Part shown: positions 5,260 through 16,253 of the stretch, piece after piece
Numbering within the stretch: the stretch's first letter is position 1
Layout of the letters: every line of letters starts with the position of its first letter
Source of the DNA: Pseudomonadota bacterium
Lineage (GTDB): Bacteria; Myxococcota_A; Polyangia; Polyangiales; Polyangiaceae
Assembly: GCA_023402175.1 (NCBI GenBank)
Contig: JAEXCN010000099.1
Coordinates: 25,178-57,177 of the forward strand
Length of the DNA stretch: 32,000 nt
Direction of reading: 5' to 3'
Program-made: the position numbers and the translations under genes
Notes under the pieces: generated by a model
What the model was told of the DNA's origin: nothing
What the model saw: the letters and a program-made list of their open reading frames with translations, nothing else
Database searches by the model: none

Positions 5260-6567
5260 TCAGGCGCCTCCCGGATCGGGACAAGCGTAGAACGCGGCCA
5301 GCACCTTGGTCATCATTGCTGGATCCTTCGCGCCGCCGAGCTCGCGGACCGAGTGCATGCTGAGCATCGGATTGCCGACGTCGACGGTGCGGATCCCGAG
5401 CAGCGTGGACGCGATCGGCCCGATCGTGCTCCCGCAGGGGAGGTCCGTTCGGTGTGCATAGTGCTGCACCGGCACCTCGGCCTTCGCGCAGAGCTCCCGG
5501 AAGAGGACCGCGGTCGGCCCGGAGGTCGCGTACCGCTGCTGCGCGTTGATCTTGATGACCGGCCCGCCGTTGAGCACCGGCTTGTGACGCGACTCGTGAC
5601 GTCCCTCGTAGTTCGGATGGACGGCATGGGCCATGTCGGCCGAGACGCAGAGCGAGCCGGCGAGCGCGCGGTGGTAGTCCTCGCGTGAGCCACCCCGTCC
5701 GGCGACGATCCGCTCGAGCGCACGCGGCAAGAACCCGGAGTGCGCGCCGTACGCGCTCTCGCTGCCGACCTCCTCGTGATCGAAGAGGGCGACGACGGGA
5801 ACGACGTCGCCGGCTGCAGCACGTGGCGCGGCATCGATCAGCGCGCGGAGGCCTGCGTGGCACATCGCCTGGTTGTCGAGGCGGGCGGAGAAGATCATCT
5901 CCTCGTCGCGACCACCGAGCGTCGGCGCGACGACGTCGTAGAGCATCAGCTCGCTGCCGACGATCGTCTCGCGAGCGACCTTCAGCTCGTCGGCGAGGAG
6001 GGCGTTCAGGTCCTTCTCGGAGTCGCCCGCGAGGCCGAAGATCGGCGCGAGGTGCTCCTGACGGTTTAGCTTGAGCCCTTCGTTGACCTCGCGATCGAGG
6101 TGGATGGCGAGCTGCGCGACGCGGAGCATCGGCTTCGTGAAGCGCACGAGCTTCGTCTCGACACGGTCGCCCTCGCGGACGAACACGCGCCCGGCGAGCG
6201 ACAGGTCACGATCGAGCCACGAGTTCAGGAGAACGCCGCCGTAGACCTCGACCCCGAGCTGGGCATAGCCCTCCTTCTTGTACTCGGGGTTCGGCTTCAG
6301 CCGCAGGTTCGGGCTGTCGGTGTGGGCGCCGACGATGCGGAAGCCGGAGATGCGCTTGCCCTCGGGGATCACGAACGCGAAGACGCTCGAGCCGCCGTGC
6401 GCGAACGTGTACCCGCCCGGCTGGAGATCGGTCCAGCTGTCGGCCTCGGCGATCGGCCGGAACCCGGCGGCGACGAGCCGCTCGGTGGCGCTCCGGACGG
6501 CATGGAACGGGGTCGGGGAGGCGCCGAGGAAGGCGAGGAGGTCCTCGAGGATCGGGTCGGTCTTCAC
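5260..6567 (-). CDS. apeB: M18-family aminopeptidase (aspartyl aminopeptidase / aminopeptidase 2)
   Basis: 435 aa. N-terminus ...LLAFLGASPTPFHAV, then GAHTDSPNLRLKP, DHEEVGS and SADMAHAVHPNY motifs. Confidence 0.9.
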   Translation of the reverse strand: MKTDPILEDLLAFLGASPTPFHAVRSATERLVAAGFRPIAEADSWTDLQPGGYTFAHGGSSVFAFVIPEGKRISGFRIVGAHTDSPNLRLKPNPEYKKEGYAQLGVEVYGGVLLNSWLDRDLSLAGRVFVREGDRVETKLVRFTKPMLRVAQLAIHLDREVNEGLKLNRQEHLAPIFGLAGDSEKDLNALLADELKVARETIVGSELMLYDVVAPTLGGRDEEMIFSARLDNQAMCHAGLRALIDAAPRAAAGDVVPVVALFDHEEVGSESAYGAHSGFLPRALERIVAGRGGSREDYHRALAGSLCVSADMAHAVHPNYEGRHESRHKPVLNGGPVIKINAQQRYATSGPTAVLFRELCAKAEVPVQHYAHRTDLPCGSTIGPIASTLLGIRTVDVGNPMLSMHSVRELGGAKDPAMMTKVLAAFYACPDPGGA

Positions 6568-6917: not shown

Positions 6918-7682
6918 CTAGCGCTTCTTGCCCTTCGCGGGCTTGCCGGCGGGCTTCCTCGCGACCGGCTTCTTCGCAGCCGCCTTCTTCGCGGCGGGCT
7001 TGGCGGCGACCTTCTTGGTCACGGCCGGCTTCGCGGCAGCCTTGGGCTTCGCGGCCGGAGCCTTCGCTTTCGCTTTCGCCTTCGCGGGCGGCGCGGCCTT
7101 CGCCGGAGCCTTGGCCTTCGCCGGAGGCGGCGGAGGAGGAGGCTTGGCGACCACCTTCTTGCTCGGCGGCGCAGCCTTCACCGGCTTCGTCTTCTTCGGG
7201 GCCTCCTCGACCTCTTCCTCCTCTTCTTCCTCGTCGATCGGCGGCGGCGGAGGTCGCGGCGGAGGCGGCTTTCTCGGGTCGGGGAGGTACTTGCTGAAGA
7301 AGGTCCGCATCGGCGTGAAGTACTTGTCGTTCCACGTCTCGCGGGACTTCTCGCTCTGGCCTTCGGGGATCTCCGTGTGGAGGACCGTCAAGCGGGTGCT
7401 TCCACCGAGCGCCTCGAAGTGCAGCTCGGCGCGCGAGTCCGCCGCCTCCCGTGGAAAGTCGGTCGAGCGCCAGCTCATGACGATGCGCCGACCGAGGTCG
7501 AGGTTCACCAGCTTGCCGCTGATGTACCCATCGAGCGCGGTGAAATTTCCACCAACCTGCGAGTCGATCTTGGCCGCCCCGCCGGTCATCGCACTGTGCT
7601 GCTCGGCATTCAGCCAAGCGAGGTAGAGCGTGGTGGGAGCCGCCGGGATCGTCGTCGAGACGCGGAGGGCCTCCTTCTTCAT
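6918..7682 (-). CDS. SRPBCC/AHSA1-like domain protein with histone-H1-like Lys/Ala/Pro tail
   Basis: ATG 7682 (MKKEALRVSTTIPAAP...WLNAEQHSAMTG...) gives an Aha1/START-like core. It is followed by a PPPRPPPPP-EEEEEE linker and a ~90-aa AKPAAKKAAAK tail. Confidence 0.75.
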   Translation of the reverse strand: MKKEALRVSTTIPAAPTTLYLAWLNAEQHSAMTGGAAKIDSQVGGNFTALDGYISGKLVNLDLGRRIVMSWRSTDFPREAADSRAELHFEALGGSTRLTVLHTEIPEGQSEKSRETWNDKYFTPMRTFFSKYLPDPRKPPPPRPPPPPIDEEEEEEEVEEAPKKTKPVKAAPPSKKVVAKPPPPPPPAKAKAPAKAAPPAKAKAKAKAPAAKPKAAAKPAVTKKVAAKPAAKKAAAKKPVARKPAGKPAKGKKR

Positions 7683-7868
7683 GAGGAGCAGCGTAACTCG
7701 GTCGACGAGACAGAAGCTAAAATCTCGCTTGCTGAACGACGATGATTTCGGCGCCCGTTCGGGACATCGAAACAACCCCGGAACGGCTGGGCCCCGGTAA
7801 TCCGGCTCGTTTCGAGCCTCGTATGGGGTCGACAACTCGGCGCCAGCTAAAGAGCCGTATTTCCAGGG

Positions 7869-7952
7869 CGGAAGTCAGGCGACTCGAACACCATACCTTG
7901 CGGTACGCACCGGGTAGCGGCCGGGCCCGCGACCATTGGCGGTTTGACTTCC
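7869..7952 (-). tRNA. tRNA-Ser(GCU), class II, 84 nt
   Basis: Acceptor GGAAGTC/GACTTCC. D CCGC-CAATGGTC-GCGG. AC loop CCGCTAC (C33). Variable arm TACC-GCAA-GGTA. T-arm TGGTG-TTCGAGT-CGCCT. A8. Confidence 0.75.
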
Positions 7953-7988
7953 ATAAGCCACGTCGTCGTCGGCCCCGAAGGAACAATC

Positions 7989-8045
7989 GTCAGCTCACCG
8001 GGGTTGAACCGGCAGCCTCTGCTCTCGGCCACGTTGGCGAGCAGT
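7989..8045 (-). pseudogene. truncated tRNA-like remnant (hairpin plus T-arm, ~57 nt)
   Basis: Hairpin CTGCTC...GAGCAG followed by T-arm GCCGG-TTCAACC-CCGGT. No complete cloverleaf and only 5/7 acceptor pairs. Confidence 0.4.
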
Positions 8046-8118
8046 ACGGGGCGAGAGGATCGAACTCTCCTAGCCCTGCTTGTGAGGCAGGTGTCATCAC
8101 CAGATGAGCGGGCCCCGC
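8045..8118 (-). tRNA. tRNA-Val(CAC), 74 nt, degenerate D-stem
   Basis: Acceptor GCGGGGC/GCCCCGT (G1-U72). AC CCTGC-CTCACAA-GCAGG. T GAGAG-TTCGATC-CTCTC. C8, and D-stem GCTC/TGAC mispaired. Confidence 0.65.
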
Positions 8119-8157
8119 GTTCTCCGCCCCGAACCGCAGCTCGGAGCGTTTTGCCGG

Positions 8158-8231
8158 TTCCGGAGGAGGGATTCGCACCCCTCATCCCAGCGGTTCAAAG
8201 CCGCGGATCTTTGCTCTTGGACCACTCCGGA
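8158..8231 (-). tRNA. tRNA-Gln(UUG), 74 nt, non-canonical
   Basis: Acceptor TCCGGAG/CTCCGGA. AC loop CTTTGAA. T-loop TGCGAAT (G55). D-loop CAAGAGCAAA lacks GG. Confidence 0.6.
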
Positions 8232-8285
8232 TCGGGCGCGTCGTGAGCGCTCGTACTCGAGCGCGTCCAGGGCAAGACGCGCCGG

Positions 8286-8354
8286 TCGCTACGGGCAGAG
8301 TCGAACTGCCTGGGCCGCGCTCATGAGGCGCGCCCTCCTCCGAGGAACGCAGCG
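8286..8354 (-). tRNA. tRNA(CAU) Met/Ile2-type, 69 nt, mini D-arm
   Basis: Acceptor CGCTGCG/CGTAGCG. D CCTC-GGAG-GAGG (4-nt loop). AC CGCGC-CTCATGA-GCGCG. T GGCAG-TTCGACT-CTGCC. Confidence 0.65.
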
Positions 8355-8389
8355 ATGCTTGCGTTCTGCACGGATGCGAACGCAGGCGG

Positions 8390-8460
8390 AGCGGTGACCG
8401 AGAATCGCACTCGGATCTCGAGCGTGGCGGGCTCGGGTTCTACTCTTGAACTATCACCGC
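8390..8460 (-). tRNA. tRNA-Gly(GCC), 71 nt, non-canonical
   Basis: Acceptor GCGGTGA/TCACCGC. D GTTC-AAGAGTA-GAAC (no GG). AC CGAGC-CCGCCAC-GCTCG (C33). T CCGAG-TGCGATT-CTCGG (G55). Confidence 0.7.
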
Positions 8461-8566
8461 AGAGGCCGGGCGATGACACCCATCGCGCACGGGTAGAGCG
8501 GCCCTCGCACCGTCCTCATCCTTCGCTACCAGTGAGGTGCCCCGCTCTCTGGCCGTGGGCGGCACG

Positions 8567-8623
8567 TGAAAAGAGCTCGTCCCCAAGTCATGTCCGCTTG
8601 GAGCTGTCCCTCGTGGGGACGAG
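8567..8623 (-). terminator. possible intrinsic terminator downstream of rsr
   Basis: Minus sense: 10-bp GC stem GCTCGTCCCC/GGGGACGAGC followed by TCTTTTC. The apical loop is long (30 nt), so the call is weak. Confidence 0.35.
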
Positions 8624-8705
8624 CAGGTGATCGGCAACGAGGGGCGTGAAGACGGGCCTTCACGGGCATTTGCCGGATGAATTCGATCGAGTCGCAGATC
8701 GACAA

Positions 8706-10313
8706 TCAGATCGAGACGGACTCGATCTCGTGGAGAAAGGCGGAGCCGTCGGCGTCACCTTTCGCGAACGCGGCCACGATCTCGAAGACGGCATCGGAGA
8801 AACCGCCGACGTTCAGCACATCGCTGCGGTTCGCGACCTGCGTGGTCGCGTAGGGCTGCAGGTCGACGAGCACGAGCCTGGCGCGCGGATTGTTCGCACG
8901 GAGTCGCTCCCATTCCTCGGCCATGACGGTCGCTCTCGTCGCGTTCGATGCGCTCGGATCCACAGCGCGTGGCTCGAGCCTGAAGTCCGCCCACGACTGG
9001 TTGTCGGAGACGAAGACGACGAGGTCGGGGGCCATGCCGCGCGCATTGAGCCACCGCAGCGGCGCAGCGCACGAGGTCCCGCCGCTCGGGAGCGACGAGA
9101 GGAGCTCGGCGTTGGTGACCACCGAATCCAGCGCGTTGAGCTGACGACGAAGGGGGACGACGTCGTCCGAGAACGGCAGGACCGTCGCGCGCTCGTTCTT
9201 CCGGAGCAGCGCGGCAGTCGCGAGCGCGGCGACGTCGATGCAACGGACCTTGGAGGAGGCAGTCCCGCGCCGGCCCGTGACTGGAGAGTGCATCGACCCT
9301 GACACGTCCGGACACAGCGCGACGGAGCCGGCGACCTCGGGCACGTTCGCGACGGCGTGCTCGACGGAGCGAGCCAGCGCGTTGACGATCCCCGGCGGCA
9401 TGCTGGTCTCGACCGCGCGATATGCGGCGAGGAGCTGATAGGGGAGTGTGCGCGAGCGCTTCACGGCCTCGGCATCCGAGAGCTTCTCGGCGACGAGATC
9501 GACCATCGCGGGATCGGTGAAGACGCCGTGACGGTAGAGCGTGTTGAGGTTCTGGCGGAGCTGATTGAACGTCATCTTCTTCGCCAGCTCGGTCCAGTGC
9601 TGGGCGCGCAGTGGGAGAGCGGTGAGCATCTCGAACGGCACGTCCGGCAGAGGCTCCCGATCGTTCTTCTTCCAGGCTTCGAATGCCTGGGTGAGCGGCG
9701 GGAGCTTGGAGCAGTCCACGTTCTTTCCGATGAGGTAGCCGTAGAGGGCCTCACGAACGGCATCGGCTTCGCCCTTGTCGTTCCGCGGGGGAGGGCGAAC
9801 CATCTTGATGACGTCCGACATGGACGGGCTCTGACCGATGGACTGGCGGAAGATGGTCTCGGGGCTCTTCGCTGCGAACCATTCGCGGAGCGCTCGCTTC
9901 GGGGCCGAGCCGAACGACTTGCGGCCCGTGACACCGGAGCGAACGATCGCCACGAACGTCCGCAGCATCCGCGCGTCGTCGATGACGCGTGGGAAGACAC
10001 GCAGCATGAGGGCGACATCGCGCGCGGCGAGCCAGGCGACGAGGAACGCCGGGACGTCCTTCATCCTGCCGTGCTTGCGGCAATACACGGCCGTCTTTGC
10101 GACGAGCTCCGGGCTCACCGAGCTCGCGAGTGCCGCGACGTTCTCGAGCTGCTGCTCGTCGGTCGCGTAGAACGTGCCGTGAAACGTGCCGGTGACTGCG
10201 TATTGCGCCAGAGCATGCTCGGGCGGGAGCGCGTATGCCAGGCCGCCGGCTTCGTTGAATGCGTCGGCAACGGGGGCATTTCCTCCGTGACCAAATAGAT
10301 GCTTGTTCGGCAT
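8706..10313 (-). CDS. rsr: Ro60-related protein Rsr (TROVE domain plus vWA/MIDAS domain), 535 aa
   Basis: ATG 10313 preceded by AAGGAGAAACC. N-terminus NEAGGLAYAL...GTFHGTFYATDEQQ (TROVE-like). C-terminus ALCPDVSGSM (DxSxS MIDAS)...GGTSCAAPL...VFVSDNQSW. The track ORF extends to 10988 only because the upstream tRNA genes lack stops. Confidence 0.85.
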   Translation of the reverse strand: MPNKHLFGHGGNAPVADAFNEAGGLAYALPPEHALAQYAVTGTFHGTFYATDEQQLENVAALASSVSPELVAKTAVYCRKHGRMKDVPAFLVAWLAARDVALMLRVFPRVIDDARMLRTFVAIVRSGVTGRKSFGSAPKRALREWFAAKSPETIFRQSIGQSPSMSDVIKMVRPPPRNDKGEADAVREALYGYLIGKNVDCSKLPPLTQAFEAWKKNDREPLPDVPFEMLTALPLRAQHWTELAKKMTFNQLRQNLNTLYRHGVFTDPAMVDLVAEKLSDAEAVKRSRTLPYQLLAAYRAVETSMPPGIVNALARSVEHAVANVPEVAGSVALCPDVSGSMHSPVTGRRGTASSKVRCIDVAALATAALLRKNERATVLPFSDDVVPLRRQLNALDSVVTNAELLSSLPSGGTSCAAPLRWLNARGMAPDLVVFVSDNQSWADFRLEPRAVDPSASNATRATVMAEEWERLRANNPRARLVLVDLQPYATTQVANRSDVLNVGGFSDAVFEIVAAFAKGDADGSAFLHEIESVSI

Positions 10314-10403
10314 GGTTTCTCCTTTCCGAGCTCGTGTGAGGTGTCGGTCGTGCGCTTGCTCCGGCGCACGATCGTGTGTTGTTCCGGTTTCGAAGAGATG
10401 AGG

Positions 10404-10477
10404 CGTTCCCGACGGGATTCGAACCCGTGTTCCTGGCTTGAGAGACCAGAGTCCTTGGCCGTCTAGACGACGGGAAC
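10404..10477 (-). tRNA. tRNA-Glu(CUC), 74 nt, canonical
   Basis: GTTCCCG TC GTC-TAGACGGCCAAG-GAC T CTGGT-CTCTCAA-GCCAG GAAC ACGGG-TTCGAAT-CCCGT CGGGAAC G. Confidence 0.9.
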
Positions 10478-10519
10478 CGACGAGGAGCGCGCGGAGGCGC
10501 GGGCGCAGTCGAAAGATGA

Positions 10520-10647
10520 AGGTCGTCCGAGTGTCTCGAGCATCGGTGTTGACTTGGGAGTCGAACCCAAAACGGTCAGCTTCTGAGGCTGGTGTCCTTC
10601 CATTGGACGAGTCGAGTGCGTGTGAGCTCGGGTCGAGCGGACGACCT
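10520..10647 (-). ncRNA. Y-RNA-like candidate: tRNA-like domain (anticodon CAG, short variable loop, weak acceptor) clamped by a long terminal stem module
   Basis: 10-bp H1 AGGTCGTCCG/CGGACGACCT, 7x7 internal loop (CTCGACC / AGACACT), 5-bp H2 CGAGC/GCTCG, then TCACACGC. This leads into D GTCC-AATGGAA-GGAC, AC CCAGC-CTCAGAA-GCTGA and T TTGGG-TTCGACT-CCCAA. The same module occurs in units A-D. Lies about 200 nt upstream of rsr. Confidence 0.5.
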
Positions 10648-10721
10648 GGATGCAGCGGCTGGAGTCGCACCAGCGTCTCGAGCTTATGAGGCTCGCGGGG
10701 TGGCTCCTCCCCCACGCTGCA
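10647..10721 (-). tRNA. tRNA(CAU) Met/Ile2-type, 72 nt plus encoded CCA
   Basis: Acceptor TGCAGCG/CGCTGCA. D GGGG-AGGAGCCA-CCCC. AC CGAGC-CTCATAA-GCTCG. T GCTGG-TGCGACT-CCAGC (G55). T73-CCA. Confidence 0.75.
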
Positions 10722-10760
10722 ATGAGTCTCCGGATCGAGAGTGTTCTCGCGTCTGGAGGG

Positions 10761-10830
10761 CACCTTCGCCGGGAGTCGAACCCGGAGAACGAGCTTCGGA
10801 GGCTCGGCCCTGATTCCGCAGGACGAAGGT
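10761..10830 (-). tRNA. tRNA-Arg(CCG), 70 nt
   Basis: Acceptor ACCTTCG/CGAAGGT. AC CGAGC-CTCCGAA-GCTCG. T CCGGG-TTCGACT-CCCGG. D-arm CCTG-CGGAAT-CAGG shifted by 1 nt. Confidence 0.7.
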
Positions 10831-10834
10831 AGGG

Positions 10835-10923
10835 AGGAAGAAAGAGGTCTCGAACCCCACACGCTCTTCCGAGCGTGCGCATTGCTTTCGAGGCAAGCCC
10901 GGCGCCCAGCCGGTTTTTCATCC
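10835..10923 (-). tRNA. tRNA-Ser(CGA), class II, 89 nt
   Basis: Acceptor GGATGAA/TTCTTCC (one U-U). AAA linker. D CCGG-CTGGGCG-CCGG. AC loop CTCGAAA. Variable arm ACGCTC-GGAA-GAGCGT. T-loop TTCGAGA. Confidence 0.75.
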
Positions 10924-10930
10924 ATGTCAG

Positions 10931-11003
10931 TGGTCGGTGAGGGAATCGAACCCCCTACGCAGAGCTTTTCAAACTCCCGCTCTACCAATTGAGCTTACCG
11001 ACC
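10931..11003 (-). tRNA. tRNA-Phe(GAA), 73 nt, canonical
   Basis: GGTCGGT AA GCTC-AATTGGTA-GAGC G GGAGT-TTGAAAA-GCTCT GCGTA GGGGG-TTCGATT-CCCTC ACCGACC A. Confidence 0.9.
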
Positions 11004-11015
11004 GTTTCAACGTGC

Positions 11016-11090
11016 TGGCCTCCCCGCCAGGAATCGAACCTGGACAACTGGCTTCGTAGACCGGTGCGTGGGATCCACCACGACGAGGAG
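11016..11090 (-). tRNA. tRNA-Arg(ACG), 72 nt plus encoded CCA
   Basis: Acceptor CTCCTCG/CGGGGAG. AC loop CTACGAA (stem has a C-A mismatch). T CCAGG-TTCGATT-CCTGG. 5-bp shifted D-stem CGTGG/CCACG. Confidence 0.7.
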
Positions 11091-11094
11091 AGGG

Positions 11095-11182
11095 AGGAAG
11101 GCAGAGGACTCGAACCTCACGCGGCTCGACACCGCGCGAATCGCGTTCCAGACGATCTCCGCCCCCGGCGGATTTGCCTTCC
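11095..11182 (-). tRNA. tRNA-Ser(GGA), class II, 88 nt
   Basis: Acceptor GGAAGGC/GCCTTCC. AAA linker. D TCCG-CCGGGGG-CGGA. AC ATCGT-CTGGAAC-GCGAT. Variable arm CGCGG...CCGCG. T-loop TTCGAGT. Paralog of Ser(CGA). Confidence 0.75.
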
Positions 11183-11216
11183 GGGTATTGCAATGCGCCT
11201 GCTCATGCGAGCGCGG

Positions 11217-11291
11217 TCAGGACGGCAGGATTCGAACCTGCGCTCTCCAGTCCCCCAGACTGGCGCTTTTGCCGGGCTAAGCTACGCCCTG
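11217..11291 (-). tRNA. tRNA-Pro(GGG), 75 nt
   Basis: CAGGGCG TA GCTT-AGCCCGGCAA-AAGC G CCAGT-CTGGGGG-ACTGG AGAGC GCAGG-TTCGAAT-CCTGC CGTCCTG A. Confidence 0.85.
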
Positions 11292-11390
11292 AGGCTTTCA
11301 CGTAGTCGTGGAAATCAAGAATAAAGTGGTCCAGTTTCACGTCATGGACCAGGACGCGGGAGCTCTGTCGACGCTCACGCGATCGACGCC

Positions 11391-11924
11391 TCATGCAGAG
11401 AGCGGAGCCGAAGCCGTGTAGCCGTCGCAGTACGGCTGCCAGACATCCGGCAGATCACCCTCATCGAGACGGATCGGCGGCACGGCGGGCAGCCAGGTCG
11501 GCTTCTTCGGCTGCCGCAGCAGCTTCATGCCGGCCTGCTCAGGCGTGCGGCTCCCCTTGCGATCGTTGCATGCGTAGCAGGAGGTGACGATGTTCTCCCA
11601 AACCGTCTTTCCTCCCTGCACGCGCGGGATGACGTGGTCGTAGTTGAGGCCTCTGATCGGCTTCTTGTCACCGCAGTACTGGCAGCGGAACCTGTCGCGC
11701 GTAAAGACGTTCATCCGGGAGAAGCGGACCGACTGCTTCGTCGACACCGACCCCTTCTTCAGGCGGACCACGGCGGGCGTCATCATCGCGATGCTCGGGG
11801 CACGGAGCTCCGCGTCCCAGGTCTCGATGACTTCGACCTTGCCGAGATAAGCCAGCACGACGGCGCGCTGCCAGGGAATGATCTTGTGAGGCGCCATCCA
11901 TGGAGTCAGCATCAGCGTTTGCAT
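11391..11924 (-). CDS. HNH endonuclease (177 aa)
   Basis: CQYCG...DHVIPRVQGGKTVWENIVTSCYACNDRKG (HNH with Cys4 zinc motif). N-terminus IIPWQRAVVLAYLGKVEVIE is typical of the small stand-alone HNH family. Same strand as the tRNA array. Confidence 0.85.
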   Translation of the reverse strand: MQTLMLTPWMAPHKIIPWQRAVVLAYLGKVEVIETWDAELRAPSIAMMTPAVVRLKKGSVSTKQSVRFSRMNVFTRDRFRCQYCGDKKPIRGLNYDHVIPRVQGGKTVWENIVTSCYACNDRKGSRTPEQAGMKLLRQPKKPTWLPAVPPIRLDEGDLPDVWQPYCDGYTASAPLSA

Positions 11925-12064
11925 GGGTCACCGTTTCTTTCTCGTTTTCAAGGCTCGATCTCCTTTTCGGAGGGATGAAGAAGTCGTGCGGGATGCACGA
12001 CGACGGGCGTCATCAGAGATAGCGAACGGACGGTGCGCTGATGTTGCTCGGATATGGCGAGTAG

Positions 12065-12149
12065 TGTCACCGGAGGGAGTCGAACCCTCAAACTCGCAAC
12101 GGAGCCCAGCATCTCGGGCTGGCGTGTATTCCAGTTCCACCACGGTGAC
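12065..12149 (-). tRNA. tRNA-Leu(GAG), class II, 85 nt
   Basis: Acceptor GTCACCG/CGGTGAC, A73. 3-bp D-stem. AC CCAGC-CCGAGAT-GCTGG (C33). ~16-nt variable arm. T GAGGG-TTCGACT-CCCTC. Confidence 0.8.
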
Positions 12150-12186
12150 GTGTCGCGTCCGTCTCGCGCTCGGCGATCTTGGACGT

Positions 12187-12266
12187 TGGTACCGACGGAG
12201 GGATTCGAACCCTCACAACACACAGTTTCTGAGACTGCGGCCTCTACCAGATTGGGCCACGTCGGC
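12187..12266 (-). tRNA. tRNA with Leu anticodon CAG but only a 7-nt variable loop (77 nt plus CCA)
   Basis: GCCGACG TG GCC-CAATCTGGTAGA-GGC C GCAGT-CTCAGAA-ACTGT GTGTTGT GAGGG-TTCGAAT-CCCTC CGTCGGT A CCA. Leu-like D-arm but no long variable arm. Confidence 0.65.
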
Positions 12267-12298
12267 ATGAAGCGCGATCCGCAGGGCGGCTTGCGCGG

Positions 12299-12373
12299 TC
12301 TGTGCAGGAGGATTCGAACCTCCAATCCCTCCGACCCGAACGGAGTGCTCTAGCCAGGTTGAGCCATGCACAG
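12299..12373 (-). tRNA. tRNA-Pro(CGG), 75 nt, canonical
   Basis: CTGTGCA TG GCTC-AACCTGGCTA-GAGC A CTCCG-TTCGGGT-CGGAG GGATT GGAGG-TTCGAAT-CCTCC TGCACAG A (C1-G72, A73). Confidence 0.9.
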
Positions 12374-12412
12374 AGAAACGACGATGATCGACGGGAGCTC
12401 GAGCCATCGCCG

Positions 12413-12484
12413 TGGTGGACCAGTCGGGAGTCGCACCCGAACCATCTGCTTGCAAGACAGACGTCTCCCCTCGGAGACAAGCCC
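12413..12484 (-). tRNA. tRNA-Ala(UGC), 69 nt plus CCA, mini D-arm
   Basis: Acceptor GGGCTTG/CTGGTCC with G3-U70. D CTCC-GAGG-GGAG (4-nt loop). AC TCTGT-CTTGCAA-GCAGA. T TCGGG-TGCGACT-CCCGA (G55). Confidence 0.7.
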
Positions 12485-12523
12485 ATGTTGAATCACTGCA
12501 TGACGGCGGGACTGGCCCGCCGG

Positions 12524-12596
12524 TGCGGCGCGCAGGGATCGCACCTGCCTCCTCCTGCTCGTCATGCAGGCGCAGTCGCTAGACTGCCAGCGCCGC
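12524..12596 (-). tRNA. tRNA-Val(GAC), 73 nt
   Basis: GCGGCGC TG GCAG-TCTAGCGA-CTGC G CCTGC-ATGACGA-GCAGG AGGAG GCAGG-TGCGATC-CCTGC GCGCCGC A. G55, and no GG in the D-loop. Confidence 0.75.
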
Positions 12597-12619
12597 TCTT
12601 CTCGTCGAAGAGAGCTTCG

Positions 12620-12692
12620 TGGATCACCTGCGAATCGAACGCAGTGCGGGCTCCTTATCAGAGAGTCCAGGGTGACCAACCCGTCGTGATCC
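12620..12692 (-). tRNA. tRNA-Ile(GAU), 73 nt
   Basis: GGATCAC GA CGGG-TTGGTCAC-CCTG G ACTCT-CTGATAA-GGAGC CCGCA CTGCG-TTCGATT-CGCAG GTGATCC A. Confidence 0.8.
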
Positions 12693-12715
12693 GTCGTTTA
12701 TGTCTGGTGAACGAT

Positions 12716-12787
12716 TGGAGAGCCGAGAGGGAGTTGAACCCTCGCGCGCCGTTTTGCAGACGACGATCCTCCCCGGAGAATCGGCTC
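12716..12787 (-). tRNA. tRNA-Cys(GCA), 69 nt plus CCA, mini D-arm
   Basis: Acceptor GAGCCGA/TCGGCTC. D TCC-GGGGA-GGA. AC GTCGT-CTGCAAA-ACGGC. T GAGGG-TTCAACT-CCCTC. T73-CCA. Confidence 0.65.
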
Positions 12788-12852
12788 GAAGAAGTGGGCG
12801 CAGTTCCCTGTTGGCCGACGTCACGTGCGCGTCGGACGTTGGGGCTGCGCGG

Positions 12853-12923
12853 AGCGGGCAGAGGGAATCGCACCCTCATTGTCAGTTTGGAAGACTGCGG
12901 TCCTACTGTTGGACGATACCCGC
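12853..12923 (-). tRNA. tRNA-Gly(UCC), 71 nt
   Basis: GCGGGTA TC GTCC-AACAGTA-GGAC C GCAGT-CTTCCAA-ACTGA CAAT GAGGG-TGCGATT-CCCTC TGCCCGC T. G55, and no GG in the D-loop. Confidence 0.75.
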
Positions 12924-13119
12924 AGGATATGAATCGAAGTATCGCAAGCCTCGACGAGATTGACGAAGACGTAGGTGATCGGCAGCTCGCGCTGCCGGGC
13001 ACCATGATGCACGAGCGAGCAGCAGCCGCTCTTGCATCATCGGCACATTGAAGCCGCCCGCGAAGGCAGCTTCCGTTCGCCCCGCAAGGAGAGAGTCCAC
13101 CGAGGTGGTCTCCTGAGAA

Positions 13120-13225
13120 GCGCTCGGCTGGAGTCCGCGGAGCGCTCTCTGACTCTCCCTATGCCATCGCTAGGTCGGTCGCCCGACGTTCGCTACCTTA
13201 GGACCGTTATAGTTACGGATGTAGT
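13120..13225 (-). ncRNA. 23S rRNA domain IV (H69-H71) look-alike fragment inside a ~400-nt non-tRNA spacer
   Basis: Minus sense 13218..13189 reads CCGTAACTATAACGGTCCTAAGGTAGCGAA, which as I recall it is the universally conserved 23S segment and contains the I-CeuI site. It is followed by GTCGGG..CCGACCT..CGATGGC..GAGAGTCAGAGA..CCGCGG, patches colinear with 23S H70/H71 but with the loops deleted. Confidence 0.6.
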
Positions 13226-13322
13226 CCTCGTCGGCATTCGAGACCGACGCTGATGTTGCTCGTGTCGTGTGAGATCTGTTGTTCGTAATTTTCGAGATCG
13301 CTGCCCAGGGATGGGGCAGCGC

Positions 13323-13398
13323 TGGTGGAACCGGCCGGACTCGCACCGGCAACCTCCTCGATGCCATCGAGGCGCTCTCCTGGCTGAGCTACGGCCCC
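13323..13398 (-). tRNA. tRNA-Ala(GGC), 73 nt plus CCA
   Basis: GGGGCCG TA GCTC-AGCCAGGA-GAGC G CCTCG-ATGGCAT-CGAGG AGGTT GCCGG-TGCGAGT-CCGGC CGGTTCC A CCA. G3-U70, G55. Confidence 0.85.
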
Positions 13399-13425
13399 TT
13401 TCGTTCGGATGTCCTTCGCGTGTGG

Positions 13426-13499
13426 TGGTGGAGCGACGGGGAATCGCACCCCGATCCCTGCAATGCGAATGCAGCGTTCTCCTGTTGAACTATCGCCCC
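13426..13499 (-). tRNA. tRNA-Ala(CGC), 71 nt plus CCA
   Basis: GGGGCGA TA GTTC-AACAGGA-GAAC G CTGCA-TTCGCAT-TGCAG GGAT CGGGG-TGCGATT-CCCCG TCGCTCC A CCA. G3-U70, G55. Confidence 0.8.
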
Positions 13500-13533
13500 A
13501 GGGTCCCCACGTGGTGGGGAGCAGACAAGTCGG

Positions 13534-13604
13534 CAGGCCGCGAAGGAATCGAACCCTCTCTCCGGGGGTTGGAATCCCGGCTGGTCACCATGACTCTACG
13601 GCCT
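13534..13604 (-). tRNA. tRNA-Trp(CCA), 71 nt, aberrant D-arm
   Basis: Acceptor AGGCCGT/GCGGCCT, G73. AC CGGGA-TTCCAAC-CCCCG (A31-C39 mismatch). T GAGGG-TTCGATT-CCTTC. The D region pairs only as GTC-ATGGT-GAC. Confidence 0.65.
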
Positions 13605-13631
13605 GTGCTCTCGAGCGCGGTGCGCTTGCAG

Positions 13632-13703
13632 CGCCTCGTAGGGGAATCGAACCCCTCTCGCCCCATAGACAGTGGGGTTGCGACGCCAGTCGCATCACGA
13701 GGC
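13632..13703 (-). tRNA. tRNA-Asp(GUC), 72 nt
   Basis: GCCTCGT GA TGCG-ACTGGCGT-CGCA A CCCCA-CTGTCTA-TGGGG CGAG AGGGG-TTCGATT-CCCCT ACGAGGC G. Position 37 is U. Confidence 0.75.
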
Positions 13704-13727
13704 AATGAACGTCGATATTCGTGGCGG

Positions 13728-13799
13728 TGTCCTCGGCAGGAGTCGAACCCGCGTCTGCCGGTTTAGAAGACCGGCGCCTCTCCGCTCGGCCACGAGGAC
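13728..13799 (-). tRNA. tRNA-Arg(UCU), 72 nt
   Basis: GTCCTCG TG GCC-GAGCGGAGA-GGC G CCGGT-CTTCTAA-ACCGG CAGAC GCGGG-TTCGACT-CCTGC CGAGGAC A. The D-arm looks like a class II type. Confidence 0.75.
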
Positions 13800-13820
13800 G
13801 TTCTTGCTCTCCTGGCTCGG

Positions 13821-13885
13821 CGTCCCCGGCAGGAGTCGAACCTGCGTCGACCGGATTAGGAGCCTATCCGTTCGGCCAGGATGAC
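13821..13885 (-). pseudogene. tRNA-like paralog of Arg(UCU) with ~7-nt deletion in the anticodon arm (65 nt)
   Basis: GTCATCC TG GCC-GAACGGATA-GGC T CC..TAATCCGG TCGAC GCAGG-TTCGACT-CCTGC CGGGGAC G. Two acceptor mismatches and no 5-7-5 anticodon arm. Confidence 0.5.
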
Positions 13886-13929
13886 AGAGGCTGTCTGCGC
13901 AGGCGAAGAGTGGATCGGTGCGCGGCCGG

Positions 13930-14002
13930 GGTAGCGTACGGGAATCGCACCCGCCTCCACTGAGTCACAATCAGCCCTCGTCACTAGACGAGTAACGCTA
14001 CC
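13930..14002 (-). tRNA. tRNA-His(GUG) with encoded G-1, 73 nt
   Basis: G-1 GTAGCGT TA CTCG-TCTAGTGA-CGAG G GCTGA-TTGTGAC-TCAGT GGAG GCGGG-TGCGATT-CCCGT ACGCTAC C73. G55. Confidence 0.8.
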
Positions 14003-14084
14003 ATGTATTCAGATGCTCATTCGAGTCGGTGATGTCAACCTCGAGCCTGAATTTCGTCTGCCGTTGATAGGCACTTCGTCGAAC

Positions 14085-14159
14085 TGGTGCTCCCGATCGG
14101 AATCGAACCGATACCTTCCGCTTGAAAGGCGGAGATCCTGACCACTAGATGACGGGAGC
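14085..14159 (-). tRNA. tRNA-Glu(UUC), 72 nt plus CCA
   Basis: GCTCCCG TC ATC-TAGTGGTCAG-GAT C TCCGC-CTTTCAA-GCGGA AGGT ATCGG-TTCGATT-CCGAT CGGGAGC A CCA. Confidence 0.85.
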
Positions 14160-14165
14160 AAACGT

Positions 14166-14308
14166 GTCGTCCGAGTGAGAAGGTCGTTGTCATGTGAATG
14201 ACGGGTTGACTGCCCGTTGCCTTACCACTTGGCTACGATGGCGAAACGCCAGCGGCTGGATTCGAACCAGCGATTCGATTGCGTGTAGGACCTGTTCGAT
14301 CGGACGAC
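14166..14308 (-). ncRNA. permuted tRNA-like ncRNA unit A (Y-RNA/YrlA-like candidate)
   Basis: Minus-sense order: H1 GTCGTCCG, loop ATCGAAC, H2 AGGTC, CTACACGCAATCGAATC. Then T-arm GCTGG-TTCGAAT-CCAGC, acceptor 3' strand CGCTGGC, cap GTTTC, acceptor 5' strand GCCATCG, TA. Then D GCC-AAGTGGTAA-GGC, hairpin ACGGG-CAGTCAA-CCCGT, H2' GACCT, loop TCTCACT, H1' CGGACGAC. Confidence 0.5.
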
Positions 14309-14457
14309 GACGAGGGGGCCGTAGAGCGCCGACGATGATCGGCGCGGTAAAGGAGCGCCTCGTCAGGTGCGTGCCTGCGAGGCGTGGAGCTCAGAGGCGA
14401 GCTCGGCAAGCTCGGCGGCGTCCGGTGCGTTGGACGCGCGGGCTGCTGAAGAAAAGT

Positions 14458-14627
14458 CCTCACCCGAGTGAAAAAGCCGGTTGGATGGTTCCATCATTCA
14501 AGATGAGTGCCTTTACCAGTTAGGCTATCGCTGCGTACGATTTGCGGTGGCGGGCACCGTGAGCAGCGAGTCGGATTCGAACCGACATTTCCTCGATTGC
14601 GTGTAGGGCATCTTCGGTCGGGTGAGG
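14458..14627 (-). ncRNA. permuted tRNA-like ncRNA unit B
   Basis: H1 CCTCACCCG/CGGGTGAGG, loops ACCGAAG / TTTCACT, H2 ATGCC/GGCTT, CTACACGCAAT. T GTCGG-TTCGAAT-CCGAC. Acceptor TCGCTGC, 28-nt cap, GCAGCGA. D GCC-TAACTGGTAAA-GGC. Hairpin TCATC-TTGAAT-GATGG. Confidence 0.5.
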
Positions 14628-14663
14628 GAAATCGGAATGCGCTTAGCTCGCTGCGCGAGCATC

Positions 14664-14744
14664 TGGTCCCCCGTGATGGAATCGAACCACCTACCGAAAG
14701 GCACCGGGTTACGACCGGCTGCTCCGCCATGGAGCGAACGAGGG
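14664..14744 (-). tRNA. tRNA-Tyr(GUA), 78 nt plus CCA
   Basis: CCCTCGT TC GCTC-CATGGCG-GAGC A GCCGG-TCGTAAC-CCGGT GCCTTTCGGTA GGTGG-TTCGATT-CCATC ACGGGGG A CCA. C33, 11-nt variable region. Confidence 0.75.
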
Positions 14745-14752
14745 AAGAGGGG

Positions 14753-14909
14753 CACCCGAGTGAGAAAGCCGTGTTGTCGTCTGAATGGACGAGCGCCTTA
14801 CCATTAGGCCACGCTGGAATAGGTGTTTTGGAGCTCGATGGCTCACGGCTCCAGCGGACGGAATCGAACCGTCGTGTCTCATTGCGTGTAGGGCATTCCC
14901 TGGCGGGTG
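14753..14909 (-). ncRNA. permuted tRNA-like ncRNA unit C
   Basis: H1 CACCCG/CGGGTG, loops CCAGGGA / TCTCACT, H2 ATGCC/GGCTT, CTACACGCAAT. T GACGG-TTCGATT-CCGTC. Acceptor CGCTGGA, 31-nt cap, TCCAGCG (identical to the tRNA-Asn acceptor). D GCC-TAATGGTAA-GGC. Hairpin TCGTC-CATTCA-GACGA. Confidence 0.5.
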
Positions 14910-14913
14910 ACGG

Positions 14914-14985
14914 AGCCCACGTCCGGAGTCGAACCGGATCCTCCCGTGTACGAGACGGGTGCTCGACCATTCGAGCTGCGCGGGC
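14914..14985 (-). tRNA. tRNA-Thr(CGU), 72 nt, canonical
   Basis: GCCCGCG CA GCTC-GAATGGTC-GAGC A CCCGT-CTCGTAC-ACGGG AGGA TCCGG-TTCGACT-CCGGA CGTGGGC T. Confidence 0.9.
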
Positions 14986-14988
14986 AGG

Positions 14989-15042
14989 GGCCCCATGTAC
15001 TCATGGGGAACGAAAGAGGCGGGCCCCATGTACTCATGGGGA
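14989..15042. repeat. two direct copies of a 21-bp hairpin element (GGCCCCATGTACTCATGGGGA), period 33 bp
   Basis: Copies at 14989-15009 and 15022-15042. Each contains the inverted repeat CCCCATG-tact-CATGGGG. A related CCATG-ttgct-CATGG occurs at about 15486-15500. Confidence 0.7.
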
Positions 15043-15118
15043 AAAGAAGGTGCTCGCGGTGCGCGCGTCGCCTGGGTGGGAGGCGCGCGCGCCGGCGCGA
15101 GCGGGTGAGAAGAATGTC

Positions 15119-15264
15119 TCGTCCGAGTGGAGAAGCCGGTGCAAGTGCTCGTATGCGAAACGAGTGCCTTCCCATTAGGCTAGCAGCCCTGTGCCTTGCG
15201 GCTGGTGGACCACGTTGGAGTCGAACCAACATGTTGTGCGTGTAAGGCTTGTCCGAGCGGACGA
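15119..15264 (-). ncRNA. permuted tRNA-like ncRNA unit D (tRNA-Ala-type body)
   Basis: H1 TCGTCCG/CGGACGA, loops CTCGGAC / CTCCACT, H2 AAGCC/GGCTT, TTACACGCACAACAT. T GTTGG-TTCGACT-CCAAC. GTGGTCC-A-CCA, 13-nt linker GCCGCAAGGCACA, then GGGCTGC (7 pairs including G3-U70). TA, D GCC-TAATGGGAA-GGC, hairpin CTCGT-TTCGCAT-ACGAG (CGC). Confidence 0.55.
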
Positions 15265-15269
15265 AGAAG

Positions 15270-15341
15270 CTCCAGCGGAAGGAATCGAACCTTCGAAGGA
15301 CCGGTTAACGGCCGGCTGCCTGACCATTCGGCTTCGCTGGA
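15270..15341 (-). tRNA. tRNA-Asn(GUU), 72 nt
   Basis: TCCAGCG AA GCC-GAATGGTCA-GGC A GCCGG-CCGTTAA-CCGGT CCTTC GAAGG-TTCGATT-CCTTC CGCTGGA G. C33, U1-A72, G73. Confidence 0.8.
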
Positions 15342-15521
15342 ATACGTGCTCGTCGCGTTCGTGCCGCGCTGCTGCCGTCTCGACGAACCCGATCTCTTCC
15401 GAGGCAGGACGACGAAGCGGTCAGCGCGCACGAGACGCGACGAGCCTTGGCGCCAAGTTGTCATAGAGCGAGGGACCTCGAGCTCCCCATGTTGCTCATG
15501 GAGAACGAGACCGAGAGTCCT

Positions 15522-15595
15522 TGGTTCCGAGCACAGGATTCGAACCTGTCTTCCTGGTTTCAGAGGCCAGTGTCCTGCCGCTAGACGAGCCCGGA
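15522..15595 (-). tRNA. tRNA-Gln(CUG) with Glu-type body, 71 nt plus CCA
   Basis: TCCGGGC TC GTC-TAGCGGCAG-GAC A CTGGC-CTCTGAA-ACCAG GAAG ACAGG-TTCGAAT-CCTGT GCTCGGA A CCA. Close in body to Glu(CUC) at 10404. Confidence 0.75.
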
Positions 15596-15653
15596 GCAGG
15601 CGGCGGCGTGCGAAGGTCGCAAGTCGCCGGTGCCACGTCGTTCGACGCAGCAG

Positions 15654-15726
15654 TAGGTCCGGAGGGAATCGAACCCTCACCACCCCGGGTAAGAGCCGGG
15701 TGCGCTTCCGATTGCGCTACGGACCT
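15654..15726 (-). tRNA. tRNA-Lys(CUU), 73 nt, canonical
   Basis: AGGTCCG TA GCGC-AATCGGAA-GCGC A CCCGG-CTCTTAC-CCGGG GTGGT GAGGG-TTCGATT-CCCTC CGGACCT A. Confidence 0.9.
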
Positions 15727-15788
15727 GTATTTGGCGCGATGCGACGAACCGGGGCAGCACTGCCCGCAGCCGCACGCATCGCGGTGAG

Positions 15789-15861
15789 TGGGACGCGAGG
15801 GAGTCGAACCCTCATCCCTCGGCTTAAAAGGCCGGTGCTCGGCCGATTGAGCTAGCGCCCC
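15789..15861 (-). tRNA. tRNA-Lys(UUU), 73 nt, canonical
   Basis: GGGGCGC TA GCTC-AATCGGCC-GAGC A CCGGC-CTTTTAA-GCCGA GGGAT GAGGG-TTCGACT-CCCTC GCGTCCC A. First gene of the array in the direction of transcription. Confidence 0.9.
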
Positions 15862-16172
15862 GCAGTTTCGACAAACAATCGCGTTTGAACAGACGCGAGC
15901 GGCTCAGATGCCAAGCTTGAGAAACATGATTGATTCGTCCAGATGAAGTTAGGTTGATGGACGCCGTCTCGAGGACGCGCCCGTGTCTGGGTGCCGATGT
16001 AGGTCGGACGCTCGACGCTGGGACGAGCCGATCCGTGCGGCTTCGGGCCGCGATCTGGGACCGACCTCGACGAGGTGGAGAGGCCGAGGATGTCGACGCG
16101 CCCGGTACGCCCAAGCCCCTTTGCGGGGCACGGCGAAACGCACGAACGTCGGGACGAGCTAACCCGAGGCCC

Positions 16173-16212
16173 AGAAACAAGAAAGGCCACCTCGGGATAT
16201 CCCGGGCGGCCT
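16173..16212 (-). terminator. intrinsic terminator (minus strand) upstream of the tRNA array
   Basis: Minus sense: hairpin AGGCCGCC-CGGGATATCCCGA-GGTGGCCT followed by TTTCTTGTTTCT. Sits 40 nt after the stop of the small ORF 16254..16541. Confidence 0.55.
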
Positions 16213-16253
16213 CTGCGAACGGCTCCGAACGATGGAGACGATACGAGGGACCG

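Follow-up and report, generated by a model that had tools for sequence, protein, structure and literature searches.

The stretch analysed here, called the window throughout, comprises 32,000 nucleotides of contig JAEXCN010000099.1 with a GC content of 66%, and it is part of a Labilithrix-like (Polyangia) bacterial chromosome and not of a phage. It contains rsr, the gene of a bacterial Ro60/Rsr protein, surrounded by a long array of tRNA genes. Ro60 is a major human autoantigen, and Ro60 with its Y RNAs represents a conserved and poorly understood form of RNA surveillance. Our analysis makes it likely that the window carries a cassette of rsr and Y RNA genes which is interleaved with a single-strand tRNA array and an HNH endonuclease gene, and in which the Y stems are closed by modules of different kinds. 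The gene and the array are laid out as follows:

7869 to 15861, minus strand: long tRNA array, with about 34 tRNA genes, rsr, the HNH gene and Y RNA genes
8706 to 10313, minus strand: rsr, encoding a Ro60/Rsr protein of 535 amino acids with a TROVE HEAT-repeat ring and a vWA domain carrying a metal ion-dependent adhesion site (MIDAS)
10319 to 10324, minus strand: Shine-Dalgarno sequence AAGGAG, 5 nt 5' of the ATG, read from the sequence

The rsr reading frame starts with an ATG at 10313-10311 on the minus strand and runs for 535 codons, with exact coordinates; it is backed by codon-position GC, the GC content of third codon positions (GC3) being 0.83-0.90. A preliminary description of this DNA, made from its letters alone, had proposed a TROVE plus vWA(MIDAS) protein of 535 amino acids preceded by an AAGGAG ribosome-binding site, and both proposals were borne out. 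The protein matched the Pfam families vWA_Ro60 (55.5 bits; cut-off 27.7) and TROVE (34.2 bits; cut-off 23), and PHROG 850, 'RNA-binding protein', matched residues 20-520 (1.7e-37). Residues 19-520 aligned end to end with residues 28-533 of Rsr from D. radiodurans (PDB 2nvo), with the DVSGSM, GGT and SDN stretches in register, and the MIDAS residues D336-x-S338-x-S340, T413 and D437 were present and invariant among 18 relatives. When the AlphaFold model (predicted local distance difference test score 78.9; predicted template modelling score 0.75) was submitted to Foldseek, the strong matches were Ro60 structures only and extended over the full length: 1yvp (template modelling score 0.75), 2i91, 9nfa, 2nvo and the Thermus phage Ro60 structures 9kop/9l5y. 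Thus, 8706-10313 encodes a genuine bacterial Ro60/Rsr. Its closest homologs, at 60-90% identity, came from metagenome contigs and from metagenome-assembled genomes (MAGs) of Labilithrix/Polyangiaceae; the best phage relative was that of Myxococcus phage Mx1 (45%), and mycobacteriophage Ro proteins were about 24% identical. A protein-pattern scan of IMG/VR using the window Rsr found no relatives.

ARAGORN called 31 tRNA genes within 8044-15861, every one on the minus strand, and three more were called by Rfam only (10836-10923, 12416-12484 and 15270-15341, the last read by eye as Asn GUU). By our reading of these calls, all 20 amino acids are covered, and the 31 ARAGORN and three Rfam-only genes form a tRNA array as this term is defined (at least 20 genes, at least 2 per kb, one orientation). 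The gene for tRNA-Glu(CUC) at 10402-10477 lies 88 nt upstream of rsr, with the rest of the array reaching 15861, and that for tRNA-Gly(GCC) at 8388-8460 lies 245 nt downstream, followed by Met, Gln(UUG) and Val(CAC). The preliminary description had placed these same tRNA genes on the two sides of rsr and added a downstream Ser, which was called by neither tool. What it counted as Ser was probably a doubtful type II tRNA-Ser(GCU)-like sequence at 7869-7952 on the minus strand, which has C for U33 and escaped both ARAGORN and Rfam.

Genes for bacterial Y RNAs lie no more than 4 kb from rsr and share its strand, and the RNAs bind Rsr through a stem containing GNCGAA (PMC4201824). To find such stems, we used a covariance model, R1, derived from 47 short Y RNAs found at other loci; 11 of its 16 consensus pairs show compensatory changes. 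The model retrieved 217 Y stems across 81 loci, mostly just downstream of rsr and all 217 on the rsr strand. Together with motif searches of the large gaps in the array, which yielded five further elements named A to E, it led us to at least seven predicted Y-type RNA genes in the array spacers, all on the rsr strand: one minimal, five tRNA-like and one rRNA-like. Their stems lie 28 nt, 0.2 kb, 2.6 kb and 3.9-5 kb from rsr:

8630 to 8677, minus strand: minimal Y RNA stem (mini-Y), R1 score 21.3 bits, E about 9e-4
10521 to 10646, minus strand: tRNA-like Y RNA C, from ARAGORN, the Rfam tRNA model, its fold, the ortholog in locus L002 and covariation in its family
12948 to 13246, minus strand: rRNA-like Y RNA of about 299 nt, with a canonical Y stem, a 23S-like module and covariation
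13189 to 13218, minus strand: 30-nt segment of that module identical to 23S rRNA, CCGUAACUAUAACGGUCCUAAGGUAGCGAA, from a 100% BLAST match and a local alignment with the Rfam large subunit (LSU) rRNA model
14166 to 14311, minus strand: tRNA-like Y RNA B, lower stem GUCGUCCGA/UCGGACGAC, with covariation
14458 to 14628, minus strand: tRNA-like Y RNA A, lower stem CACCCGA/UCGGGUG, of the same architecture as B
14753 to 14911, minus strand: tRNA-like Y RNA E, of the same architecture as B
15118 to 15265, minus strand: tRNA-like Y RNA D, of the same architecture as B

The single Y-like RNA that the preliminary description had seen upstream of rsr is element C; it had missed the others, among them the whole rRNA-like class. 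Here and below, L-numbers (L001, L002 and so on) are the labels of compared loci, L001 being Myxococcus phage Mx1.

The rRNA-like Y RNA was found through the second match of R1. Its 5' strand, GGUCUCGAAUGCCGACGAGGACUACAU, is canonical and includes a perfect CGAAUGCC...GACUACAU, and the 3' strand, GUCUUCGUCAAUCUCGUCGAGGCU, pairs with it from 250 nt downstream; at the GNCGAA(N)G motif the RNA reads CUCGAAUG, in which the first G-C pair has become C-G. The UACAU of the Y stem is followed immediately by the 30-nt segment listed above, which is 100% identical to 23S rRNA as annotated in Salmonella and other distant bacteria. We take it to correspond to E. coli C1908-A1937; it is also the I-CeuI site. 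The Rfam LSU model aligned 13173-13220 to its positions 1932-1988, a stretch that covers helix 69, the CUAAG mini-hairpin, the GUAGC linker and helix 71. The helix 71 counterpart is a GNRA-capped hairpin with a closing G...C pair as in 23S rRNA, followed by a stretch containing GAUGGC. The match to LSU_rRNA_bacteria is local and only 48 nt long (13.4 bits; cut-off 50), and the segment is a mimic or a captured motif and no rRNA gene. We found no convincing further 23S similarity in the other conserved module blocks, GCGGGGCGAACGG, CAAUGUGCCG and CUAGCGAUGGC, and therefore confine the claim of mimicry to approximately E. coli positions 1908-1975.

The rRNA-like class occurred in 9 of the 125 bacterial loci examined, the window included. 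Eight of these loci are from Polyangia, again counting the window, and the ninth, L018, is a low-GC MAG labelled Clostridia. At 7470-8200 of L018, no fewer than five Y RNAs stand in tandem after rsr (a YrlA, an rRNA-like RNA, two short Y RNAs and a further one), and this locus thus appears to present different module types side by side in a classical compact arrangement. No match came from a pattern scan of IMG/VR in which ACTACA had to be followed by the complete helix 69 loop. With a looser pattern, 14 loci were obtained, of which 6 were kept and 8 rejected; the rejected ones (L128-L132 and L135-L137) are near-identical, have about 40% GC and no 3' partner strand, and were regarded as chance matches in sequence that is probably coding. 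L128 and L130, the two of these eight that were tested, carried no other Y stems. Among the matches listed, then, six viral contigs carry the rRNA-like class: five large ones of 94-363 kb, namely L127 (149 kb), L134 (a 183-kb uncultivated virus genome), L138, L139 (363 kb) and L140 (94 kb), and a 6-kb fragment, L133. L127, L134, L139 and L140 hold 1 to 9 additional same-strand Y stems, and within the stretch of L134 that was examined there is an rsr gene whose product is 44% identical to the window Rsr. These sequences suggest that large phages make extensive use of Ro/Y RNA systems.

The Y stems of the nine rRNA-like members were 85% paired, and 13 of 20 pairs showed double changes. None of 500 shuffles reached the observed values, and controls with slid strands gave 27-59% pairing. 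For eight full-length bacterial and viral members, RNAalifold predicted 37 pairs, 21 of them with compensatory changes, including those of the helix-71-like hairpin and of two other module stems. The invariant core of the whole family is GGUCCUAAGGUAGC; the full helix 69 loop occurs only in most of the Polyangia members. We found no such RNA in Rfam 15 and none in Chen et al. 2014 (PMC4201824), and no earlier report came up when full texts, with two reviews of the field outside the scope, were searched for Y RNA or Rsr together with helix 69 or rRNA mimicry. The class is thus probably, though not certainly, undescribed. In L002, ARAGORN made a permuted 'tmRNA*' call at 5467-6065, which is almost certainly a false positive because it spans a tRNA-Ala and the rRNA-like Y RNA.

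The five tRNA-like elements share a closing stem, 5' UCGUCCG-NN-CGAnnnGnC-CUACACGC ... GnnCnnnnC-AC-UCGGACGA, and read CCGAUCGAAC or CCGACCGAAG at the position of the GNCGAA(N)G motif. The core of element C was called by ARAGORN as a 'tRNA-Leu(CAG)' of 72 nt without a long variable arm (10545-10616), and the Rfam tRNA model scored 36.6 bits at 10550-10613; its module has the tRNA arms in normal order and lacks a full acceptor stem, and its lineage-specific Y stem is GGUCGUCCG.../...CGGACGACC, with UCACACGC. In the modules of A, B, D and E, according to sequence reading and minimum-free-energy folds, the T arm is followed by an acceptor-like stem, the D arm and an anticodon-like arm, which is the permuted order of YrlA. 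A spliced alignment of 15 tRNA-like elements from 8 loci was used to evaluate covariation: 87.8% of the cells paired, 10 of 17 pairs had changed on both sides, the covariation score was matched by 0 of 500 shuffles, and slid controls gave 30-49% pairing. Element C can thus be assigned to a lineage-specific family of putative tRNA-like Y RNAs that covariation supports. At 14002-14026 on the minus strand, a canonical-looking Y 5' strand (GACUCGAAUGAGCAUCUGAAUACAUG) abuts the 5' end of tRNA-His. No matching 3' strand was found for it, and it may be a relic or belong to a Y RNA whose module is an entire tRNA.

Mini-Y, 28 nt past the stop codon of rsr, was the top match of R1 in the whole window when both strands were searched with filters off. 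It keeps the lower stem, the AAUGCC/CCCCUCG internal loop and the upper stem, and a short loop takes the place of the apical UACAU and module. At the position of the GNCGAA(N)G motif it reads GGCAAAUG; in the CGAA motif, a G-C pair that is invariant elsewhere has become A-U, both strands having changed. Similar hairpins occupy the same position in L107 and L083. Neither a scan of the window at the Rfam gathering thresholds nor one of 7700-11400 at E values up to 10 found a Y_RNA or YrlA near rsr. A YrlA match of 17.1 bits at 10951-11072 was rejected as an artefact spanning tRNA-Phe and tRNA-Arg; tandem tRNAs can imitate YrlA in model searches (Chen et al., PMC4201824). In the Polyangiaceae relatives L009, L011 and L012, by contrast with the window, YrlA scored above the cut-off of 69 bits (74.2, 73.6 and 70.8 bits), directly after rsr and before tRNA-Gly(GCC) inside the array, with a short Y RNA next. 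The fold of the whole 245-nt spacer between rsr and tRNA-Gly(GCC) was of ordinary minimum free energy (z = -1.75), and in it the local Y hairpin was obscured. The remaining features of the array are:

8492 to 8563 (ends approximate), minus strand: degenerate tRNA-Thr(GGU), from comparison with orthologous loci
8569 to 8624, minus strand: GC-rich hairpin of 10 bp with a 30-nt loop, followed by UCUUUU, read from the sequence
11391 to 11924, minus strand: HNH endonuclease (HNH_5) of 177 amino acids, from Pfam and conservation

The GC-rich hairpin is possibly a terminator or a processing hairpin, and the terminator scan did not call it because its loop is too long. All Labilithrix-type relatives have a tRNA-Thr(GGU) gene after rsr. 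The window copy has decayed: compared with the intact copies of L003, L004 and others, its T arm has lost the 3' half, and neither ARAGORN nor Rfam called it. Other tRNA genes of the array also have odd features. In 8 of the 31, the T-loop reads UGCGAUU or similar, with G in place of the near-universal U55 (pseudouridine): Gln UUG 8156-8231, Gly GCC 8388-8460, Met 10647-10721, Val GAC 12522-12596, Gly UCC 12851-12923, Ala GGC 13323-13398, Ala CGC 13426-13499 and His 13928-14001. The same T-loop is found in the decayed Thr(GGU) and in orthologous tRNAs of related loci (L003, L004 and others). Only part of the array tRNA genes encode the CCA end.

The order recA-comM, array with HNH and rsr, AHSA1-M18 is kept in at least six related Labilithrix-type assemblies; the syntenic loci include L002, L003/L103, L005, L088 and L004, among others. 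Their common inner order is tRNA-Met, tRNA-Glu(CUC), rsr, tRNA-Gly(GCC), an odd 70-nt tRNA-Met and tRNA-Gln(UUG), and in L002-L005 the order tRNA-Glu(CUC)-rsr-tRNA-Gly(GCC) is accompanied by 21-33 tRNAs. Because flank and inner gene order recur in relatives, the locus is evidently fixed in this lineage. The HNH_5 protein is 57-90% identical across the rsr loci of Polyangia (L002-L014, L084-L097 and others), tRNA-poor loci included, and its conservation makes it look like a partner of rsr and not a decaying selfish gene. In L006, L009 and L010, the HNH gene ends about 100 nt upstream of the rRNA-like Y RNA. In the window, the array is flanked on one side by genes for a Ser/Thr kinase, an FGE-sulfatase-domain protein, an M18 aminopeptidase and an AHSA1-like protein, and on the other by ComM, RecA, a short-chain dehydrogenase and a sigma54-dependent activator with an FHA domain. 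The last of these (25238-26953) was considered as a candidate RtcR and rejected, since it has the FHA domain and no RtcR-like Pfam match. The AHSA1-domain protein (6918-7835, minus strand) bears a long histone-H1-like tail rich in Lys, Ala and Pro, which is kept in related loci. At about 22840-23280, where there is no Pfam-annotated open reading frame, several copies of a repeat of about 30-40 nt (GCCTTACCGCG[AG]GGTCGTTCGCCGGGCGA) surfaced as weak matches in the Y-stem search.

The link between rsr and tRNA genes extends beyond these relatives. When the 80 best genomic loci of the window's Rsr clade were counted, 19 had at least 10 tRNAs within 10 kb; 8 of these are from Polyangia, and most of the other 11 from Pyrinomonadaceae or Bryobacteraceae. 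The Ro gene of phage Mx1 lies within a tRNA region. That region also holds YrlA-like Y RNAs at 254-392 and 606-776, about 11 kb upstream of Ro (R1 35 and 33.5 bits), one of which overlaps a 'hypothetical protein' coding sequence (610-732) that is probably a mis-annotation. The preliminary description had suggested that cluster C mycobacteriophages (Bxz1-like) pair a Ro homolog with large tRNA sets. Ro homologs are indeed annotated in phage records (182 of Mycobacterium phages, 117 of Streptomyces phages), and the pairing holds for Mx1; in the Bxz1-type phage ScottMcG, however, the Ro gene stands apart from the tRNA set, with only two tRNAs, 3 kb upstream. In archaea, a TROVE-domain protein was found in 20 of 29 tRNA gene clusters (Morgado and Vicente, PMC6333295). 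The text searched of three papers on bacterial tRNA arrays (PMC4758250, PMC5966550 and PMC8421152) has no mention of Ro-like proteins, the TROVE domain or Y RNA, but HNH endonucleases within such arrays are described there. Because Mx1 and the archaeal clusters show the same link, a Ro gene among tRNA genes is by itself not new, being already on record for archaea and phages; the new element is the Y RNA that mimics rRNA.

Compared with the known bacterial systems (Rsr/Yrn1 of D. radiodurans, rsr-yrlBA-rtcBA of S. Typhimurium, and RYPER with PNPase), the window Rsr has the same fold, the same domains and an intact MIDAS, even though it is only about 22% identical to D. radiodurans Rsr. The cassette resembles theirs in having same-strand Y RNAs within a few kb, CGAA-type stems, and several Y RNAs per locus with differing modules. 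It differs in that it is dispersed through a tRNA array whereas theirs is a compact operon, in that most of its Y stems are lineage-specific variants, and, relative to the Salmonella type, in the lack of a nearby rtcB, rtcA or rtcR; a Pfam search for RtcB and RtcA in 20 large open reading frames of the window, most of them picked by GC3 support, gave no match, in agreement with the preliminary description. Elements A, B, D and E share with YrlA (Rfam RF02553) the order of T arm, acceptor-like stem and D arm and a long closing stem; they differ in reaching at most 21.6 bits against a cut-off of 69 and in a closing stem that has neither the canonical internal loop nor an exact GNCGAA(N)G, and the arms of element C are in normal, non-permuted order. 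Like the long tRNA arrays described before (Tran et al. 2016; Santamaria-Gomez et al. 2021), the array has more than 20 tRNAs at about 4 per kb on a single strand, is non-periodic, includes an HNH gene and covers all amino acids; unlike those arrays, which are sporadic, it is syntenic across related genomes. Archaeal TROVE tRNA clusters and phage Ro genes (Mx1, Bxz1-type, Thermus phage phiLo) are alike in linking a Ro/TROVE gene to many tRNAs, and phage Ro genes, like that of the window, come with Y-like RNAs. Those cases belong to another domain or replicon, and the reports on them contain neither interleaved Y RNA genes nor an rRNA-like module.

We therefore propose the following mechanism. 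The array would be transcribed into long precursors, which is the simplest model because the genes lie on one strand with gaps of tens of nucleotides and no sigma-70-like promoter is found inside the array. Processing of the RNase P and RNase Z type would free the tRNAs, the Y RNAs and the rsr mRNA, so that their expression would be coupled. Rsr would bind the Y stems, and the modules would gate its cavity and tether the ring to PNPase or to factors recognising tRNA or rRNA, as for YrlA and Yrn1. In this way, the decay or maturation of structured RNA would be steered to the RNAs of the translation apparatus, probably under stress. Precedents exist for several of these steps: a Y RNA tethers Rsr to PNPase and gates its cavity, YrlA is cut by RNase P and receives CCA, and Rsr free of Y RNA helps to mature 23S rRNA, which Y RNA inhibits (PMC4201824), while a tRNA array of Anabaena is induced by translational stress together with rtcB (PMC8421152).

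A number of observations weigh against this interpretation. The promoter search, which covered 7600-17000 and found nothing sigma-70-like, also counts here, and the terminator-like hairpin after mini-Y speaks against one transcription unit; it may split the array into at least two. The expression of the window's Y RNAs and their binding by Rsr are predictions from sequence. Neither a PNPase gene nor rtcB/rtcA was found in the window. The match of Rsr to the NCBIfam equivalog NF041674, 'RNA-binding protein Rsr', was 76.4 bits and so far short of the cut-off of 900 that the protein must represent a divergent Rsr clade, outside the one on which that model was built. The stems of A-E have a small 2x2 internal loop in place of the canonical AUGCC/AAUCCUUG loop bound by Rsr, mini-Y has an A at a nearly invariant G and a score of only 21 bits, and the Rfam YrlA model stayed below its threshold everywhere in the window, the best score coming from a partial match within element B (21.6 bits, 14219-14273), followed by the 17.1-bit match rejected above.

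Some of these points would fit the idea that there is no functional link, rsr having been placed in the array by chance and the Y-like elements being spacer hairpins and tRNA pseudogenes in decay. A decayed Thr(GGU) and oddly built tRNA genes are indeed present in the array, the fold of the 245-nt spacer is ordinary, YrlA is below threshold, and tandem tRNAs can mimic it (PMC4201824). Pseudogenes and chance hairpins would nevertheless have to account for compensatory changes that keep the stems of 15 tRNA-like and 9 rRNA-like members, for an rRNA-like RNA with a perfect canonical 5' strand and a matching 3' strand, for a YrlA of Rfam grade at the orthologous site in Polyangiaceae, for 217 of 217 Y stems on the rsr strand, and for a pairing of rsr with tRNA arrays in three phyla, phages and archaea, and we consider this idea very unlikely. 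Equally unlikely is the suggestion that the 23S-like segment is a relic at the DNA level, either a captured piece of an rRNA gene or a homing target, and not a functional mimic of rRNA. The segment is exactly identical to a universally conserved site in ribosomal DNA used by intron homing endonucleases, the I-CeuI site, and there is an HNH gene in the array, close upstream of the element in the three loci named above. The segment is, however, always found within a covarying Y stem, right after UACA. The helix-71-like hairpin itself covaries (GUCGG/CCGAC, UUCGG/CCGAA, GCGGG/CCCGC, CUGGA/UCCAG), only about 65 nt are 23S-like while other conserved module blocks have no 23S match, the class is kept in a low-GC bacterium and six viral contigs, several with more Y RNAs, and the HNH protein is equally conserved where the element is absent.

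A somewhat better case can be made for the array and rsr as a recently acquired mobile or phage-derived island that is still able to move, and the preliminary description had likewise suggested a transferable module. The array adjoins comM, a known insertion hotspot in other bacteria, and the same link occurs in Mx1, in viral contigs with Y RNA arrays (one with rsr), in Acidobacteriota and in archaea. Horizontal spread has been reported for long tRNA arrays, which also contain HNH endonucleases of the homing type (PMC8421152), and the array in the window has an HNH gene too. On the other hand, the flank order is common to at least six assemblies whose Rsr proteins are only 67-78% identical, which indicates that the locus is older than the divergence of these assemblies; comM is intact; no integrase or transposase was seen among the window's open reading frames that were scanned; megablast of 7000-16000 against 50,697 phage records gave no match, and the best phage Rsr is 45% identical compared with 60-90% for bacterial ones; and HNH is conserved about as well as Rsr. 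Recent acquisition is thus unlikely. Transfer remains plausible as the ancient origin of the module, given its occurrence in Acidobacteriota, phages and archaea and the HNH gene, at a locus that now looks fixed and not currently mobile.

The interleaved cassette, which we regard as the likely reading, shows that a tRNA array can be wholly interspersed with rsr and its Y RNA genes. Such an arrangement would have escaped earlier surveys, because matches overlapping tandem tRNA genes were discarded, and the lineage-specific Y stems appear to exist undetected by curated models. To our knowledge, the tRNA mimic is the only type of Y RNA module that has been described in bacteria; a Y RNA carrying 23S helix 69 with its 3' flank and a helix-71-like hairpin, from myxobacteria to large phages, would add mimicry of a second kind. 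In the 50S subunit, helices 69 and 71 are the elements that touch helix 44 of 16S rRNA. A wider idea, which we offer tentatively as possible rather than probable, is that Y RNA modules are general mimics of the translation machinery. On this view, the rRNA-like class, of 170-300 nt, would be widespread in bacteria and large phages and have a module that reproduces the helix 69-70-71 region of 23S rRNA, and Rsr ribonucleoproteins could dock on the 30S subunit or on factors recognising helix 69, or the module could gate the activity of Rsr on 23S rRNA; tRNA arrays, for their part, may breed tRNA-like Y RNAs from tandem tRNA genes. Rsr is known to help mature 23S rRNA and to take part in the decay of rRNA, Y RNA being the inhibitor, and the rRNA-like Y RNA therefore offers a testable handle on how Y RNAs choose their targets. 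It may also help to explain the upkeep of long tRNA arrays and the use of Ro by phages.

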